Shown: one piece after another, positions 4,939 to 62,034 of the stretch
How the letters are laid out: every line of letters begins with the position of its first letter
How positions within the stretch are numbered: position 1 is the first letter of the stretch
Assembly (NCBI GenBank): GCA_016186955.1
Contig: JACPKP010000004.1
Span: forward strand, 142,563 to 206,562
Reading direction: 5' to 3'
Length of the DNA: 64,000 bases
Source of the DNA: Candidatus Daviesbacteria bacterium
Lineage (GTDB): Bacteria; Patescibacteriota; Microgenomatia; Daviesbacterales; UBA10151
Notes under the pieces: model-generated
Databases searched by the model: none
What the model was told of the DNA's origin: nothing
The model's input: the letters and a program-made list of their open reading frames with translations, nothing else
Translations under genes and position numbers: made by a program

Positions 4939-5100
4939 CGCGGGATCGTCTAATGTAATACACCCCATTAGACGATATGATTGTAGACATATTGCGGGAT
5001 CGTCTAATGTAATACACCCCATTAGACGATATGATTGTAGACATATTGCGGGATCGTCTAATGTAATACACCACATTAGACGATATGATTGTAACTTCGT
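4939..5100. repeat. Tandem array of 3 x 54-bp units, each containing an 11-bp perfect inverted repeat
   Basis: The unit 'gcgggatcgtctaatgtaatacaccccattagacgatatgattgtagacatatt' repeats head-to-tail three times, with the third copy slightly diverged. The stem is atcgtctaatg/cattagacgat. The first 16 nt of each unit match a tRNA 5' end. Confidence 0.9.
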
Positions 5101-5137
5101 TTCAGAACCTTGCCATTACCCGATCTAAGTATGACCT

Positions 5138-10027: not shown

Positions 10028-10105
10028 AAAGAGGAGGTGGGAAGCCCTGCCTGTCCTGACTGCCGTCAGGCAGGACGGCAGGCAGGTAATCCACCTGGAG
10101 GGTGT
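10028..10105. repeat. 78-bp GC-rich palindrome-containing repeat (MITE-like), copy 1
   Basis: Near-identical (1 mismatch) to 13276-13353. It contains cctgcctgtcctgactgccgtcaggcaggacggcaggcagg. Confidence 0.85.
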
Positions 10106-10475: not shown

Positions 10476-10497
10476 AGCTGGGGATGAATGAAATTAT

Positions 10498-10522
10498 GGA
10501 TTCCCGTCTTCGCGGGAATGAC
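10498..10522. repeat. RPE-like short palindromic repeat copy (ggattcccgtcttcgcgggaatgac)
   Basis: Member of the GTCATYCCCGC-loop-GCGGGRATCC family. A second hairpin, caccgcttt-tt-aaagcggtg, follows. Confidence 0.7.
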
Positions 10523-13275: not shown

Positions 13276-13353
13276 AAAGAGGAGGTGGGAAGCCCTGCCT
13301 GTCCTGACTGCCGTCAGGCAGGACGGCAGGCAGGTAATCCATCTGGAGGGTGT
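13276..13353. repeat. 78-bp GC-rich MITE-like repeat, copy 2
   Basis: Identical to 10028-10105 except for one C/T difference. Confidence 0.85.
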
Positions 13354-28492: not shown

Positions 28493-28527
28493 GGGCAGTC
28501 CGGTTTTCCGGGCTGCCCATTCTTTTT
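28493..28527 (+). terminator. Rho-independent terminator (hairpin gggcagtccgg/ccgggctgccc + TTCTTTTT) between convergent genes
   Basis: Read directly. A second GC hairpin, cccccttcgggggg, lies at 28422-28436. Confidence 0.4.
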
Positions 28528-28939
28528 ACCCTGACGCTTTCGACAGTCCTAAAAACTCCTTATAATCCCTGATATAATCATCGGGATCATAAAGATTGGA
28601 CGCCAAAACCAGTAGAATAGTTTTCTTTTTAAAGTCATGCATTTCATGCCAGACCATTTTGTCTAAAAACAGTCCATGCTCAGGTTTGTCCAAAAAAACT
28701 GTTGCGCGTTTTTTCCCGTCATCAACTATTATTTTAATATCCGAATTCAGGCAGAATAAAACCTGTTGGGTTTTTTTATGTGCATGGAACCCCCTCGGAA
28801 ATTTAGGGTCAGCATCAAATATTGAATAAATCCTGTTTATGGGGAAGGGGATATGGTCAGGGGTTTGGGCAAACACCAGGGAACCGTCGTCTGTAATTTT
28901 TGGCAGGTAGATAAACCGCACCAGTTCATTTTCTCTCAT
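28526..28939 (-). CDS. Cupin-fold sugar 3,4-ketoisomerase-like (FdtA/WxcM-like)
   Basis: 'YSIFDADPKFPRGFHAHKKTQQVLFCL...VWHEMHDF' fits the WxcM/FdtA cupin pattern. Confidence 0.45.
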   Translation of the reverse strand: MRENELVRFIYLPKITDDGSLVFAQTPDHIPFPINRIYSIFDADPKFPRGFHAHKKTQQVLFCLNSDIKIIVDDGKKRATVFLDKPEHGLFLDKMVWHEMHDFKKKTILLVLASNLYDPDDYIRDYKEFLGLSKASG

Positions 28940-28980
28940 TTGTCTTTGTAAATATGCCAGTACTGTTGTAAAGTATCTTT

Positions 28981-29541
28981 ATGATAAATTTTTTAAAGAA
29001 TGTAATCAATCAGGCCACCGGTTTAGATTCTACATCAATTATCATAGCAGTTGGAGCAGCTACTTTTTTCTTCGGGTTTGGCGCAGGCGCGCTTTATAAT
29101 TATTACCTGATTTTGACAAACTCACCAATAGTTTCAACACTAAGAACCTCTTTAACCTTCAAATCAGCAATTTTCGGGGATGGGATAATTTTACCAATCA
29201 TTAACATGACGGCAGCATATTTCCTGATCAAAAACCGGAAATACCGGACAAAAACCATTTTAGTTTACTCATTTATATCAGGATTTGTTGTTTTAGCCTA
29301 TTTTCACATCACCCAGGCTGTCAAGGGTTTGGTCAACTGGGCGATGCCCTCACCCTGGCATTGGAACCTGTTAGGGCTTTGGCATGCAATATATATGTAC
29401 TCTGTTGCGAGTTTCATCTCCTATTTTTACTTTACCAGCATAAAGTCAGCAATAAAGGAAAAAAAAATTCCGCTTCAGCTGATACTTGTCACAATTGGAA
29501 TGATAACATTTTTTATACTACTTGATTTAGATTACCGCTGA
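28981..29541 (+). CDS. Hypothetical multi-pass membrane protein
   Basis: It has 5-6 hydrophobic helices and no motif. Confidence 0.35.
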   Translation: MINFLKNVINQATGLDSTSIIIAVGAATFFFGFGAGALYNYYLILTNSPIVSTLRTSLTFKSAIFGDGIILPIINMTAAYFLIKNRKYRTKTILVYSFISGFVVLAYFHITQAVKGLVNWAMPSPWHWNLLGLWHAIYMYSVASFISYFYFTSIKSAIKEKKIPLQLILVTIGMITFFILLDLDYR

Positions 29542-29559
29542 TTGATCCTTACTGGCACT

Positions 29560-29619
29560 CACCTGGAAGGAGTCCATTCGGCCACCTTCCAGGTGGGCCC
29601 TGACTCCTGGAAGGTGGTG
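29560..29619 (+). promoter_or_regulatory. Three-part element with mutually exclusive hairpins: A cacctggaagg, B caccttccaggtg, C cctggaaggtggtg
   Basis: B can pair with either A or C (11-bp and 9-bp stems). It sits just upstream of a TTGACA-18-TATAAT promoter. Confidence 0.3.
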
Positions 29620-29633
29620 TCATATGTGATAGG

Positions 29634-29663
29634 TTGACATGAACCCCATAGTCATACTATAAT
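29634..29663 (+). promoter_or_regulatory. Sigma70-like promoter TTGACA-18-TATAAT
   Basis: Read directly. It lies upstream of the GC-rich small gene. Confidence 0.35.
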
Positions 29664-29767
29664 CCCAACTTAGTGTCTGGAAAGTGACAAGGTCATAAGA
29701 TTGCTTGGCTTTTGTTGTTTTTCCAGCAATAGGCAGGGCATATTCAGTTGTGGAAAAGGAGGTTGTC

Positions 29768-29968
29768 GTGGCAAAGCGGAAGCGACAGCTGGTTGAGGCG
29801 GAGCTCAGGAAAGCTGACCTCCAGATCTCAGCCCAGTCCGGGTATCATTATGAAACCGGCCTGGGATACGGATCCCCGCTCGAAGAGTGGGATGAATCCT
29901 CATACTATGAGGAGGGCGAGGAACCAAACTGGGGCAGAGCCCTGTCCCAGTTGCAACGCAACAACTGA
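29768..29968 (+). CDS. Small (66 aa) basic-N/acidic-C protein encoded in an anomalously GC-rich (~57%) patch
   Basis: A perfect RBS AAGGAGG sits 5 nt before GTG. The ORF is in-frame with ORF-track entry 29705..29968. A terminator follows. Confidence 0.4.
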   Translation: MAKRKRQLVEAELRKADLQISAQSGYHYETGLGYGSPLEEWDESSYYEEGEEPNWGRALSQLQRNN

Positions 29969-29977
29969 ATATGCCAG

Positions 29978-30010
29978 AAGGCGGCCTCCGGGCCGCCTTT
30001 CCTATTCTAT
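29978..30010 (+). terminator. Hairpin aaggcggcc-tccg-ggccgcctt + T-rich tail (probably bidirectional)
   Basis: Read directly. It abuts the sortase stop on the opposite strand. Confidence 0.45.
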
Positions 30011-30592
30011 AAGTTCACCAAAGACCAAAAGCCTTTTTAGGCTGGTGCCGGGTGGAGTACAGGTCATCAGAGTAAGAATTTTTTCATCTGTGTTGCTTTT
30101 TAGGTACTGCACATCATTAGGATTAACTATTTTTTTGCCATTGACAACATATTCATATTTTTCCCCTTTAAAGTAGATAAAAACTTTATCCCCATAATTT
30201 AACTTATCCAGTAGATAAAATATTGAGTTGTACCTTTGTGCTTCATAAAAATTTACTGAGGAGTGTGAGAATAAAAACATATTTCCTGGTTGGCCGGGAT
30301 AGGCTGTACCTTTAGCATGGGCTATGCCCTTTGCCAGCACCTGTTGGTATTCCCACTCCTTCCATGGGTCAACATTGGCGATTATGCGTGAATTAGCCCC
30401 TATTTTGGGCACCACAATGCCAAATTGCCGGTCTATAGGTTTAACCTCCTTCTTAGACTGTTTAACTAAGGCGCTTGTTTGGTAACCAAGCTCAGCTAAA
30501 AGCATGGGGTAAAAGGTAAGCCCGACAATAGAAAATGAGAAAAAAATCAGAATAATACCTAATGATGTTAAAAACCCGGGATATTTAAACAC
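30002..30592 (-). CDS. Sortase (class A/E-like transpeptidase)
   Basis: N-terminal TM. Catalytic 'LTLMTCTPPGT' (TLxTC) with upstream His. Length 196 aa. Confidence 0.8.
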   Translation of the reverse strand: MFKYPGFLTSLGIILIFFSFSIVGLTFYPMLLAELGYQTSALVKQSKKEVKPIDRQFGIVVPKIGANSRIIANVDPWKEWEYQQVLAKGIAHAKGTAYPGQPGNMFLFSHSSVNFYEAQRYNSIFYLLDKLNYGDKVFIYFKGEKYEYVVNGKKIVNPNDVQYLKSNTDEKILTLMTCTPPGTSLKRLLVFGELIE

Positions 30593-30596
30593 AATT

Positions 30597-31163
30597 TTAG
30601 ATGCGTTTTTTTGACCTTAACCCTTTGAAAAGTATTACCAAACCGGAAACCAGTGAAGCCAAAGCAATAATCAACCAAATAGATTCTGCACCTGTTTTTG
30701 GCAGGCTGATTGATGCCCCCAAAATCTCTCCTCCAGTACCTCCGCCACTGCAGCTGTAATTGCTGTTTTTGGCCAGATATGGAGCATTTTGCAGCCCCCA
30801 AAGACTTCCGTCAGGTATCAGAACCCAATTGTCTTTTTTTAAAACTTCAATTTGACCCTGGGTTAAGGATGAAGCTTTCCACCAGTTTGTCTGAATACCT
30901 GCTCCGTCTATAGAACAAAAACATTGCTGCAGTGTATTGTCTGAAAGTGTATAGACCTTGTCAGACCCTTTAAATTCAGTGCTATTTCCCGCTATACCAT
31001 GGGTTCCGCCGGGGTAGTCTGCTTTTATTGTTCCCTCCGGATTTGAACATGAAGGGAAATGAGGGGTATCAACAGCTTTTACCTGCATTGGGGTAGCGGT
31101 AAATAAAATTAATGAAACTGATAGTGATACCAAAAGTAACTTTGATAAATTCAAATTTATCAT
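30597..31163 (-). CDS. LPxTG cell-wall-anchored surface protein (sortase substrate)
   Basis: Signal peptide. C-terminal 'LPKTG' + hydrophobic helix + 'RSKKRI' tail. Gly/Ser-rich linker. Confidence 0.8.
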   Translation of the reverse strand: MINLNLSKLLLVSLSVSLILFTATPMQVKAVDTPHFPSCSNPEGTIKADYPGGTHGIAGNSTEFKGSDKVYTLSDNTLQQCFCSIDGAGIQTNWWKASSLTQGQIEVLKKDNWVLIPDGSLWGLQNAPYLAKNSNYSCSGGGTGGEILGASISLPKTGAESIWLIIALASLVSGLVILFKGLRSKKRI

Positions 31164-57911: not shown

Positions 57912-59669
57912 CTACCTCACAACGACTGACTTTGCCAGATTTCTAGGTCTATCAGGGTTCAACCCTAATTTCAAAGCCAGATAGTATGACAAAAGCTGGG
58001 CAAAAACAGGGTGGGGGATAACTGAGCTTGCCCCAACATCCCTTACCTTAAAAAAGAAGTCAAAAACCGGATTGTTCTCCGGTCCTACACCGATAATAAA
58101 TGCGCCCCGTGCCTTAACCTCCATGGCGTTTGCCAAAATGGCCTGTTTAGTTTCATCTTCCGGTACAAAAACTATCACAGGAGTATTTTTTTCTATTAGC
58201 GCAATCACTCCATGCTTAAGCTCTCCTCCTGCAAAACCCTCAGCATGGATATAGGCGTTTTCCTTAATTTTAAGACTTGATTCCATTGCAACAGGGTACG
58301 AAAGCCCCCTTCCCAAAATGAAAATATTTTTCTGGTGGAATATTTTACCTGCTAAATTTTTGATTGCAGACCTCCTTTTAAGAATTGATTCAATTTCTCT
58401 GGCGCTTTCAAGGATTATTTTTTGGGCTGTTTTTCTTTTACCAACAAGACAATAAGATAAAAACACCATATGGGCAAACATGGCTGTCAAAGCCTTTGTG
58501 GAACATACTGCTTTTTCAACACCTGCCCTCAGCAAAACAGGGAAATCCACGCTCCTGTACAAGGTTGAGCCTAAAACATTAACCAAAGCAACTGTTTTTG
58601 CACCATGCTTTTTTGCTGAAAGTACAGGTTCAAGCGTATCAATGCTTTCCCCTGACTGTGAAACAGCCACCACCAGGCTTTTAGGCTTTATGTAATCCTC
58701 GATATAATTGAACTCAGATCCAACTGAAAAGTTAACATGTTTTTTGGCTATTTTTGAGAAAAGATAAACTCCCAGCAGACATGAATAACTGGCCGATCCG
58801 CAAGCGATAAAAAATGTCCCATAGGCTTTCCTGATCATGCCCGCCACTTGCTCCACCTCTTTGGCGTTTTGTGCAATATTCCGGAGCGCCTTTGGCTGCT
58901 CATATATTTCTTTTTCTAAAAAGTATTTATATTTTTGCAGGCCTGAAGTACTGTGTTCCCAAGGCACCGTAGTAATAATAGGCTGAAGTTTTCTGGAGTT
59001 TAGGCTGTTGTAAAGCTCTAATTCTTTATTTAACCTGATAAGCTGGTTATCTTGTAAAAACACTAATTTTTTTGTGTGGGGGAGTAAGGCGTTCGGATCG
59101 GAAGCAATAAAAAGTTTTCCATTGCCAACACCTGCGATAAGGGGTGAACCAACTTTAGCTGCAATAATTTCATTCCCATCAGATACCACAATAGCGTTTA
59201 ATCCGCGTAATTTCTGGAATATATTTAAAACCGCTTGATTTAAACCATTTTTTTTTAGCGCTTCTTCAATCAAGTGTACGATCACCTCGGTATCAGTTTC
59301 AGATTTCAGATTGTGGCTTTTAAGGGTTTTTTTAAGCTCAAGATAATTCTCAACTATGCCGTTATGGACTAAAACCAGTTTGCCGCTGCAATCTTTATGT
59401 GGGTGGGCATTAATTTGAGTAACACCTCCATGTGTGGCCCAGCGGGTATGCCCTATTGCCAATCCCACACCGTCATTCCCGCGAAAGCGGGAATCCATTA
59501 TTTTTGGTAAAAAACCTGTGTTTTTTTCTATCTTCCATATTCCATCTTCTATATTCCAACTTGCTATTCCCCAAGAATCATAACCCCTGTACTCTATATC
59601 TTTGAGGCCATTAAAGGTTGTTTGAACCGCATTTGTATCCTGACCAATTACCCCAAAAATTCCGCACAT
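57912..59669 (-). CDS. glmS: Glutamine--fructose-6-phosphate aminotransferase
   Basis: 'MCGIFGV', 'GHTRWATHG' and two SIS domains with 'SQSGES' are present. It carries a 9-aa in-frame insertion from a palindromic repeat. Confidence 0.9.
   Translation of the reverse strand: MCGIFGVIGQDTNAVQTTFNGLKDIEYRGYDSWGIASWNIEDGIWKIEKNTGFLPKIMDSRFRGNDGVGLAIGHTRWATHGGVTQINAHPHKDCSGKLVLVHNGIVENYLELKKTLKSHNLKSETDTEVIVHLIEEALKKNGLNQAVLNIFQKLRGLNAIVVSDGNEIIAAKVGSPLIAGVGNGKLFIASDPNALLPHTKKLVFLQDNQLIRLNKELELYNSLNSRKLQPIITTVPWEHSTSGLQKYKYFLEKEIYEQPKALRNIAQNAKEVEQVAGMIRKAYGTFFIACGSASYSCLLGVYLFSKIAKKHVNFSVGSEFNYIEDYIKPKSLVVAVSQSGESIDTLEPVLSAKKHGAKTVALVNVLGSTLYRSVDFPVLLRAGVEKAVCSTKALTAMFAHMVFLSYCLVGKRKTAQKIILESAREIESILKRRSAIKNLAGKIFHQKNIFILGRGLSYPVAMESSLKIKENAYIHAEGFAGGELKHGVIALIEKNTPVIVFVPEDETKQAILANAMEVKARGAFIIGVGPENNPVFDFFFKVRDVGASSVIPHPVFAQLLSYYLALKLGLNPDRPRNLAKSVVVR
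59472..59496. repeat. RPE-like palindromic repeat inserted in-frame within glmS
   Basis: gtcattcccgcgaaagcgggaatcc translates on the coding strand to 'MDSRFRGND', immediately before 'GVGLAIGHTRWATHG'. Confidence 0.75.
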
Positions 59670-61011: not shown

Positions 61012-62034
61012 TTGGTGTATAATCGGGGCAGGAAAATGACAGAGTTTAGGATTGTCACTTTTGGGGGAGGAACCGGGCACTATACGCTGTTGCGCGGGCT
61101 TGTTGAACAAAACAGGCCGGAGTCCGTCACAGCCGTCCCTTCAACCTGGGATGACGGGGGATCCTCGGGAAGGCTCCGTACCGAGATGGGGGTGTTGCCC
61201 CAAGGTGATGCCAGACAATGCTTACTGGCTCTAATGACCAGTGATGAGCAAAGGCAGGTGGCGCAGCAGCTTTTCAATGACAGGTTTGCCAGCGAACGCG
61301 GACCCCTGAAAGGCCACAGCCTGGGAAATCTTATCTTTGCCAGGCTGGAGCGGACTTTCCAGGGCCAGGACCGGGGGCTTGAAGCAGCCAGAATCCTTTT
61401 TAAGGTTAAATCCAAAATCATACCGCCTACTTTAACAAATACAATTTTAATAGCCAAAACAAAAAAAGGGGTCATTATAGAGGGTGAAACAAATGTTGAC
61501 CACAGAAAAAAAAGAGAGGACTTTGACCCGAAAGACAGAATTTCCAGATTATATTTTGACACCAAAGCAGATGCAAACCCTCAAGCGCTTCATGAAATAA
61601 GTAAAGCTGATGTTTTAATTTTCTCATCAGGGGATTTATATACCAGTATCCTGCCGCATCTTTTAATTTCCGGGATACAGGAGGGGATACTTTCATCAAA
61701 AGCTAAGCTTTTTTTTATAGTAAATTTGATGACCAAGGCAGGTGAGACTGATTTCTATAAAGCGTCCGATCATATTGAGGTTTTTCTGCATTATTTGGGG
61801 GATCCAAAAAGGTTAAATTACATCGTTGTCAATGAAAACCGCATCGACAAGAAAGTTATTAACCAATACAGGGAAGAAAGCCAGGAATTGGTTAAAATTG
61901 ATGCTGAAAGAATCCATAAGCTGGCCGCAAAATCAAGGATACTCAAGGCCCCAATGGCCTTATATTTTCCCAAAGAACATCTTTTACGCCATAACCCTGA
62001 GGTCTTGGCATCAACAATACTTAAAGCTGCCTGA
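61012..62034 (+). CDS. YvcK/UPF0052 (CofD-like) gluconeogenesis-factor family protein
   Basis: '[14 protein letters not shown]' and '[11 protein letters not shown]' are present. Confidence 0.75.

Follow-up and report, generated by a model that had tools for sequence, protein, structure and literature searches.

A candidate small-protein gene with a tightly folded, end-clamped predicted mRNA in Candidatus Daviesbacteria

Introduction

Dual-function small RNAs (sRNAs), such as RNAIII/delta-haemolysin, SgrS/SgrT and SR1/SR1P, encode small proteins. Here we describe a candidate small gene that invites comparison with them, located in a GC-rich patch of a 64,000-nucleotide (nt) stretch of DNA (the window; all coordinates are positions in it) from a metagenome-assembled genome (MAG) of Candidatus Daviesbacteria, which belongs to the Microgenomates in the Candidate Phyla Radiation (CPR). 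The gene would encode an acidic protein of 66 amino acids (aa), and the mRNA predicted for it is tightly folded and closed by a long stem between its two ends. Two further kinds of described system come close to this arrangement. The mRNAs of type I toxins, such as aapA/IsoA of Helicobacter, are locked by a long-distance interaction between their 5' and 3' ends (PMC6733600), and GC-rich intergenic regions of AT-rich genomes have been used for finding structured non-coding RNAs (ncRNAs) (Stav et al. 2019, PMC6429828).

The locus resembles each of these in part. As in dual-function sRNAs, a stand-alone folded transcript in the range of 200-500 nt is predicted, with a strong promoter, an intrinsic terminator and a conserved small protein. 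However, the open reading frame (ORF) takes up ~60% of the transcript, there is no homology and there is no known base-pairing target or regulatory activity; the likeness is a functional analogy. The short ORF, the highly structured mRNA and the possession of its own promoter and terminator are shared with type I toxin mRNAs (hok/Sok, aapA/IsoA; PMC6733600), as are the predicted pairing of the 5' untranslated region (UTR) near the Shine-Dalgarno (SD) sequence with the extreme 3' end and the presence of small hydrophobic ORFs, here in relatives of the window. In contrast to those mRNAs, the product is acidic and soluble, no promoter for an antisense RNA was detected, occlusion of the SD is not robustly predicted, the cassettes hold one to three ORFs, and there is no sequence similarity to known toxin families. 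Among known principles, the long-distance pairing of 5' and 3' ends in type I toxin mRNAs is the nearest, although the locus does not qualify as a member of that class. Finally, as in the regions used for ncRNA hunting (PMC6429828), there is a GC-rich, well-folding island between genes of an AT-rich genome, but the island contains a conserved, translated-looking ORF and has neither a covarying common fold nor an Rfam family.

Results

The patch carries a full set of signals for a discrete small gene, all on the + strand and all as a first-pass annotation had described them. A sigma-70-type promoter (TTGACA-18-TATAAT, 29634-29663) matches the consensus at 12/12 positions, and a consensus scan of 28500-31000 gave no further promoter site scoring >9/12. 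Judged from the position of the promoter, transcription would start at ~29669-29671. Three related loci, L004, L005 (11/12) and L077 (11/12), retain the promoter together with part of its spacer (CCCATAGT). The SD, read from the sequence as AAGGAGG (29756-29762), stands 5 nt before GTG 29768, the putative start of the coding sequence (CDS) of the 66-aa protein (V/M)AKRKRQLVEAELRKADLQISAQSGYHYETGLGYGSPLEEWDESSYYEEGEEPNWGRALSQLQRNN (29768-29968), for which homologues, substitution ratios, third-position composition and folding against synonymous shuffles all provide evidence. It is followed by a candidate intrinsic terminator at 29977-30010, in which a hairpin (GAAGGCGGCC-TCCG-GGCCGCCTTT, 29977-30000; 10-bp stem, 7 GC pairs) precedes a moderately T-rich tail. 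The hairpin is nearly identical in L005 and L077, and the stem of L077 has a compensatory C:G to U:A change. The proposal of a small-protein gene with its own promoter, ribosome-binding site and terminator is thus supported, since all the signals could be located and the ORF is conserved as protein. NCBI annotates an 87-aa ORF from TTG 29705 (29705-29968, HYW46_03355). Because the SD and the aligned starts of the homologues indicate GTG 29768, the NCBI start is probably 21 codons too long and the true start is probably GTG 29768.

A word-indexed protein search with the single 66-aa sequence returned the query only, and the closest relatives of the upstream gene product were therefore fetched instead. 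This neighbouring gene (28981-29541, stop codon 29539-29541; HYW46_03350) encodes a multi-pass membrane protein of 186 aa. In the two loci L004 and L005, whose flanking proteins are 76% and 77% identical to it, the slot held by the small gene in the window is occupied by ORFs of 63 aa and 66 aa, respectively; in all three genomes the slot lies between the conserved membrane-protein gene and a sortase gene. With a profile of these three sequences, the word-indexed search found the query and its two orthologues, and an exhaustive hidden Markov model (HMM) search of 1.84 billion representatives found three more members of 67-71 aa (P0124, P0126 and P0127); one additional match was a spurious repeat protein. 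The family thus comprises six sequences, namely the window protein and P0122, P0123, P0124, P0126 and P0127 (63-71 aa).

The six members have in common the motif LGYGP.FDEFPEE..YEG.EP.WG.LSQF.R. Their starts align with GTG 29768 and every insertion or deletion is in frame. In pairwise comparisons of the five members with DNA, the proportion of synonymous differences (pS) is saturated at 0.6-0.8, against 0.33-0.49 for nonsynonymous differences (pN), and the ratio of nonsynonymous to synonymous substitution rates (dN/dS) is 0.1-0.6. The ORF, its start and its frame are conserved and its amino acids are under purifying selection, as in a protein-coding small gene. Three of the orthologues are syntenic or near-syntenic (L004, L005 and L077) and one stands in another context (L076). 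The first-pass annotation had named a lack of conservation of the ORF in relatives as a refuting observation; the outcome favours the ORF, whose protein is conserved in five further sequences. The product was also correctly described there as small and charged, with a basic N-terminal stretch and an acidic/aromatic C-terminal part. The latter is the conserved part, and the protein is acidic overall and without a hydrophobic stretch. Judged from this comparison of sequences, the ORF is a genuine gene of a very rare, uncharacterised small-protein family of Daviesbacteria.

The acidic protein was found at none of 66 metagenome loci whose homologues of the membrane-protein gene are more distant, and mostly a different gene lay directly downstream there; a contig scan with the neighbouring protein as query returned only the contig already known. 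The membrane protein itself has ~200 homologues (P0002-P0121) and is widespread in Microgenomates, with the motifs GFGAGALYNYYL, NWAMPxPWHWN and LWHAIYM, and no family match was obtained for it in Pfam or NCBIfam. The closest homologue of the small protein, P0124 (57% identical), is encoded in L076 (region 1581-2255) in a different context, where it adjoins a major facilitator superfamily (MFS) transporter. An IS200-like Y1 transposase gene is ~1.3 kb away, and on the upstream side the contig ends 34 nt before the ORF. The contig of L004 and L006 (CAZFVS010000018.1) is labelled 'uncultured Gammaproteobacteria', a bin that is likely misclassified because the contig is syntenic with the Daviesbacteria locus and its membrane protein is 76% identical.

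The GC excess that first drew attention to the patch was confirmed by windowed GC. The ORF has 57.2% GC, 29700-30005 has 54.6% and 29560-30010 has 52.5%, against a window mean of 38.8% (standard deviation, sd, 4.6% in 300-nt windows), and among the 300-nt peaks of the 64 kb the patch ranks second in GC (z ~3.7). The highest peak (59%, ~61090-61390) is the 5' third of a CofD-family gene (61036-62034; Pfam E = 1e-72), of which the remainder is AT-rich, a second local GC anomaly within a normal coding gene. The GC content at third codon positions (GC3) is 0.67 in the window ORF, 0.66 in L004 and 0.63 in L005, compared to 0.34-0.45 in nine neighbouring genes, and the L004 and L005 loci have overall 38-39% GC. 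As the synonymous sites are saturated, a foreign composition would have decayed, and the GC-richness must therefore be maintained. It would then be a maintained property of the gene rather than a sign of foreign origin, and it fits selection for mRNA folding.

Folding of the predicted transcript (29668-30010) is extreme. Its minimum free energy (MFE) is -156 kcal/mol, with a z-score of -7.6 for the + strand compared to -4.9 for the - strand, and the orthologous transcripts have z-scores of -4.8 (L004), -5.1 (L005), -9.0 (L077) and -2.6 (L007). A 5' leader hairpin (29669-29733, + strand) is present in both the MFE and the centroid structures; leader hairpins occur at the corresponding place in L005 and L077, and there is none in L004. 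When codons were shuffled synonymously within each CDS, such that protein and codon composition were kept, each of the five coding sequences of the family folded more stably than its own shuffles (z from -2.8 to -4.4; window CDS -3.2). The controls, 18 segments of neighbouring genes, had a mean z of -0.6 (sd 1.4, minimum -2.83). RNAalifold showed a few local hairpins with compensatory changes, from GGGC/GCCC to GGGAU/AUCCC and from GAGUUCC/GGAACUC to GAAUUCC/GGAAUUC.

A perfect 15-bp inverted repeat, overlooked by the earlier annotation, encloses the SD and the whole ORF (GGCATATTCAGTTGT / ACAACTGAATATGCC, 29737-29751 / 29961-29975). Its 5' arm (29737-29751, + strand) ends 4 nt before the SD and is 100% complementary to its 3' arm, so that the stem joins the 5' UTR to the final codons, the stop and the first bases after it, and the terminator begins one base later. 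The duplex has an energy of -25.1 kcal/mol, compared to -8.8 +/- 2.4 in shuffles (p < 0.001), and it is found in both the MFE and the centroid structures. The 3' arm overlaps a conserved motif, CGCAACAACTGAATA (29957-29971, + strand), which covers the last codons and the stop codon in the window. L005 and L077 have an identical copy, but there it follows the stop codon and so belongs to the 3' UTR. Since it is identical whether coding or untranslated, the motif is conserved as nucleic acid and not as protein. Its core, ACAACTGAATAT, also ends small-ORF cassettes in L070 and L072, and an nhmmer profile of the motif found no instances besides those in six loci (window, L005, L077, L007, L070 and L072).

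The window and its relatives thus share a frame that consists of a promoter abutting the upstream stop codon, a leader, the 5' arm, the 3' motif and the terminator. The cargo in this frame varies. It is the acidic protein alone in the window and L004, a 44-aa membrane peptide and the acidic protein in L005, two membrane peptides and the acidic protein in L077, and a 31-aa membrane peptide alone in L007. In the more distant genomes of L072 and L070, the cassette is convergent with the membrane-protein gene and holds two or three small membrane-protein ORFs. Together, the ORFs of L005, L007, L077, L070 and L072 that resemble transmembrane segments are 31-86 aa long, and these peptides have no similarity to one another, to the window or to any family. 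In L005 (2826-2846) and L077 (1125-1145), where the acidic ORF comes after a membrane-peptide ORF, a conserved hairpin, CATCTT(T)-GGAG-AAGATG, has the SD of the acidic ORF (GGAG) in its loop and the start codon in its 3' arm. This hairpin may serve to couple or control translation.

Two other repeats were noted elsewhere in the window. At 4940-5101 there are three tandem 54-nt units (100%, 100% and 87% identity), each with a 32-nt hairpin, ATCGTCTAATGTAATACACCCCATTAGACGAT. A 32-nt sequence at 10491-10522 and 59472-59503 is present in inverted orientation, 49 kb apart and 91% complementary, with a small hairpin (GGGAATGAC / GTCATTCCC) inside.

Discussion

We consider it fairly probable that the patch is an autonomous single-gene transcription unit for the 66-aa acidic protein, with a tightly folded, end-clamped mRNA under structural selection and a separate insertion upstream. 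The unit would be ~340 nt long (~29669-30010) and probably strongly transcribed. Its product would be a cytoplasmic protein, predicted to be largely disordered, with a conserved acidic/aromatic C-terminal part. The mRNA would have been selected to fold tightly through the leader hairpin, many local hairpins in the CDS and the 15-bp 5'-3' stem just upstream of the SD. Such a compact, end-clamped fold may shield the transcript from nucleases and make it long-lived, and the clamp may limit or time the access of ribosomes and thus translation. The disordered acidic protein probably binds a partner via its conserved 35-residue motif.

Several observations weigh against this account. The evidence for the promoter, the transcription start and the terminator consists of matches to consensus sequences. 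In the synonymous-shuffle test, some of the control gene segments also reach z ~-2.8. RNAalifold on the five coding regions gave a covariation term of +4.68, that is, no net covariation support for a common fold; selection therefore seems to be for stable local folding generally and not for one defined architecture. Pairing between the 5' arm (GCACATTCA...) and the 3' motif is incomplete in the relatives, being interrupted and statistically weak (p 0.03-0.25), and the perfect stem is therefore a feature of the window genome. Sequestration of the SD, by pairing with GACCTCC (29817-29823), is predicted in the MFE structure and missing from the centroid. As for the protein, no family was found for it in Pfam, NCBIfam, PHROGs, PADLOC or sequence profiles of the PDB. 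AlphaFold2 with the six-sequence alignment predicted three short helices at low confidence (predicted local distance difference test, pLDDT, 59; predicted template modelling score, pTM, 0.21). The family is limited to six sequences, five of them with DNA, from a few related metagenomes.

An alternative is that the element has a dual function or works mainly at the RNA level, such that a structured RNA (an sRNA, or a 3'-UTR-derived sRNA made of ACAACUGAAUA and the terminator) is the functional part and the protein is secondary. The extreme folding z-scores would agree with this, as would a high GC3 kept despite saturated synonymous sites, a 3' motif and terminator that are better conserved than the ORF whether coding or not, and the unrelated ORFs that occupy the shared frame in L007, L070 and L072. 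However, conservation of the protein motif goes together with synonymous variation and a dN/dS below 1. In addition, Rfam gave no gathering-score match in the window, only chance-level matches (E of at least 1) in 29450-30100 and nothing for the seven related loci that were scanned; the patch also lacks tRNA and tmRNA genes according to ARAGORN, and net covariation for a common fold was missing. Also, no target is known, and the motif occurs in only six loci. On balance we regard an RNA-level function as unlikely.

The exchange of cargo suggests a broader, rather speculative idea, to which we give a similarly low probability. The locus could belong to an undescribed small-ORF cassette of Microgenomates/Daviesbacteria, in which a conserved frame (a strong promoter directly after the stop of the membrane-protein gene, the leader hairpin, the 5' arm, ACAACUGAAUA and the terminator) receives freely exchanged cargo, which may be the acidic protein, one to three unrelated membrane peptides, or both. 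The clamp and the 3' motif would then govern the expression of the cargo as an RNA-level lock, a processing site or an sRNA seed.

A locus like those of type I toxin-antitoxin systems seems quite unlikely. In such a locus the frame would be that of a locked toxin mRNA, the membrane peptides of the relatives would be the toxins, and the acidic protein would be accessory or replacement cargo. It is true that the 5'-3' clamp adjoins the SD, that the 3' region of L077 pairs with the SD of its first ORF, that the frame of the relatives holds hydrophobic ORFs of 31-86 aa, and that the principle has been described for aapA/IsoA (PMC6733600). Nevertheless, the product encoded in the window is acidic and has no hydrophobic segment, and therefore does not qualify as a membrane peptide. 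A consensus scan found no promoter-like site on the minus strand in the cassettes of the window, L005, L007 and L077, although only consensus sites were scanned for. The membrane peptides are related neither to one another nor to any family, and type I toxins do not typically come in cassettes with two or three ORFs.

The first-pass annotation had also read the three-copy hairpin upstream of the gene as an attenuator or a riboswitch platform for it, which we find hardly tenable. The sequence and the folding energies agree with the repeat structure that it described. Units of the CCTGGAAGG type lie at 29560-29572 (A), 29583-29595 (B, reverse complement) and 29604-29617 (C), and they allow either an A:B hairpin (-26.3 kcal/mol, z -5.5) or a B:C hairpin (-27.0 kcal/mol, z -4.2). 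That these are nearly isoenergetic and mutually exclusive favours such a reading; the whole element folds at -33.3 kcal/mol. However, the -35 hexamer at 29634 begins 14 nt beyond the end of the hairpins (29556-29620), so that the element lies wholly upstream of the promoter and not in the 5' UTR. It is missing from every orthologous locus that is readable there: in L004, L005, L077 and L008 the TTGACA follows 1-5 nt past the upstream stop codon, and in L007 the spacer is too short for the element. It has no Rfam match at E <= 10, no U-tract, no terminator call and no conserved domain of aptamer size.

Because it is missing from the four readable orthologous loci, the element is a palindromic insertion of ~90 nt (~29543-29633, + strand), placed between the upstream stop codon and the promoter, rather than an attenuator. 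It is best read as a small insertion specific to the window strain, similar to miniature inverted-repeat transposable elements (MITEs) and repetitive extragenic palindromic (REP) sequences, which at most insulates the small gene from read-through. Like these elements it is short, palindromic and intergenic, is present or absent between orthologous sites, and breaks assemblies within itself. TTGA flanks it on both sides, possibly as a 4-bp target duplication. It differs from them in its weak terminal inverted repeats and in that no second full copy is found in the 64-kb window. The Logan contigs from five sequencing runs (L001-L003, L198 and L199) all break at 29589/29590 within arm B, which could be due to polymorphism, to repetition elsewhere in the genome or to a drop in coverage. 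With <=1 mismatch allowed, the sequence CACCTGGAAGG has 4 occurrences in the window, where 0.76 would be expected, and a scan of viral contigs for CAACAACTGAATAT gave at least 120 scattered single matches, the chance level for a 14-mer. The proposed resemblance to a longer repeat holds in one part only. The 78-nt GC-rich palindromic repeat, itself MITE/REP-like, has 99% identical copies at 10028-10105 and 13276-13353 (-40 kcal/mol, z -3.8), and it shares with the insertion a 14-nt motif, CACC[C/T]TCCAGGTGG (score 23, compared to a null maximum of 22), and no further homology.

Recent acquisition of a foreign gene by horizontal transfer, as the first-pass annotation had suggested, is highly improbable and already largely refuted by synteny. 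In its favour are the atypical composition (57% compared to 39% GC), the palindromic insertion that adjoins the gene and the transposase gene near the P0124 homologue in L076. However, in L004, L005 and L077 the orthologues hold the same syntenic site and are just as GC-rich, with a similarly high GC3. The flanking proteins of these genomes are 64-77% identical, yet the small gene has saturated synonymous sites. There are also no mobility genes in the immediate flanks. Lastly, it is scarcely credible that the 15-bp repeats are recombination sites of an inverton, whose inversion would uncouple the SD and ORF from an outside promoter and cause phase variation. These perfect repeats do flank 209 bp with the promoter outside, but only one orientation is seen in the MAG and in three independent Logan assemblies, the 3' motif of the relatives has no perfect counterpart on the 5' side, and no recombinase was found among eight proteins scanned, seven of them from neighbouring genes.

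With the folded single-gene transcription unit as the preferred account, the locus indicates that what looks like a classic ncRNA-hunting signature, a GC-rich and strongly folding island in the AT-rich genome of a CPR bacterium, can be a genuine gene for a small protein with a structurally selected mRNA. As an outcome, a six-member orphan family has been defined and one annotated start codon corrected. The general impact is modest, because the family is very narrow, unless the cassette of conserved frame and swappable cargo proves to be general. A conserved UTR frame with swappable small-ORF cargo could open up the biology of small proteins and mRNA stability in uncultivated CPR bacteria.

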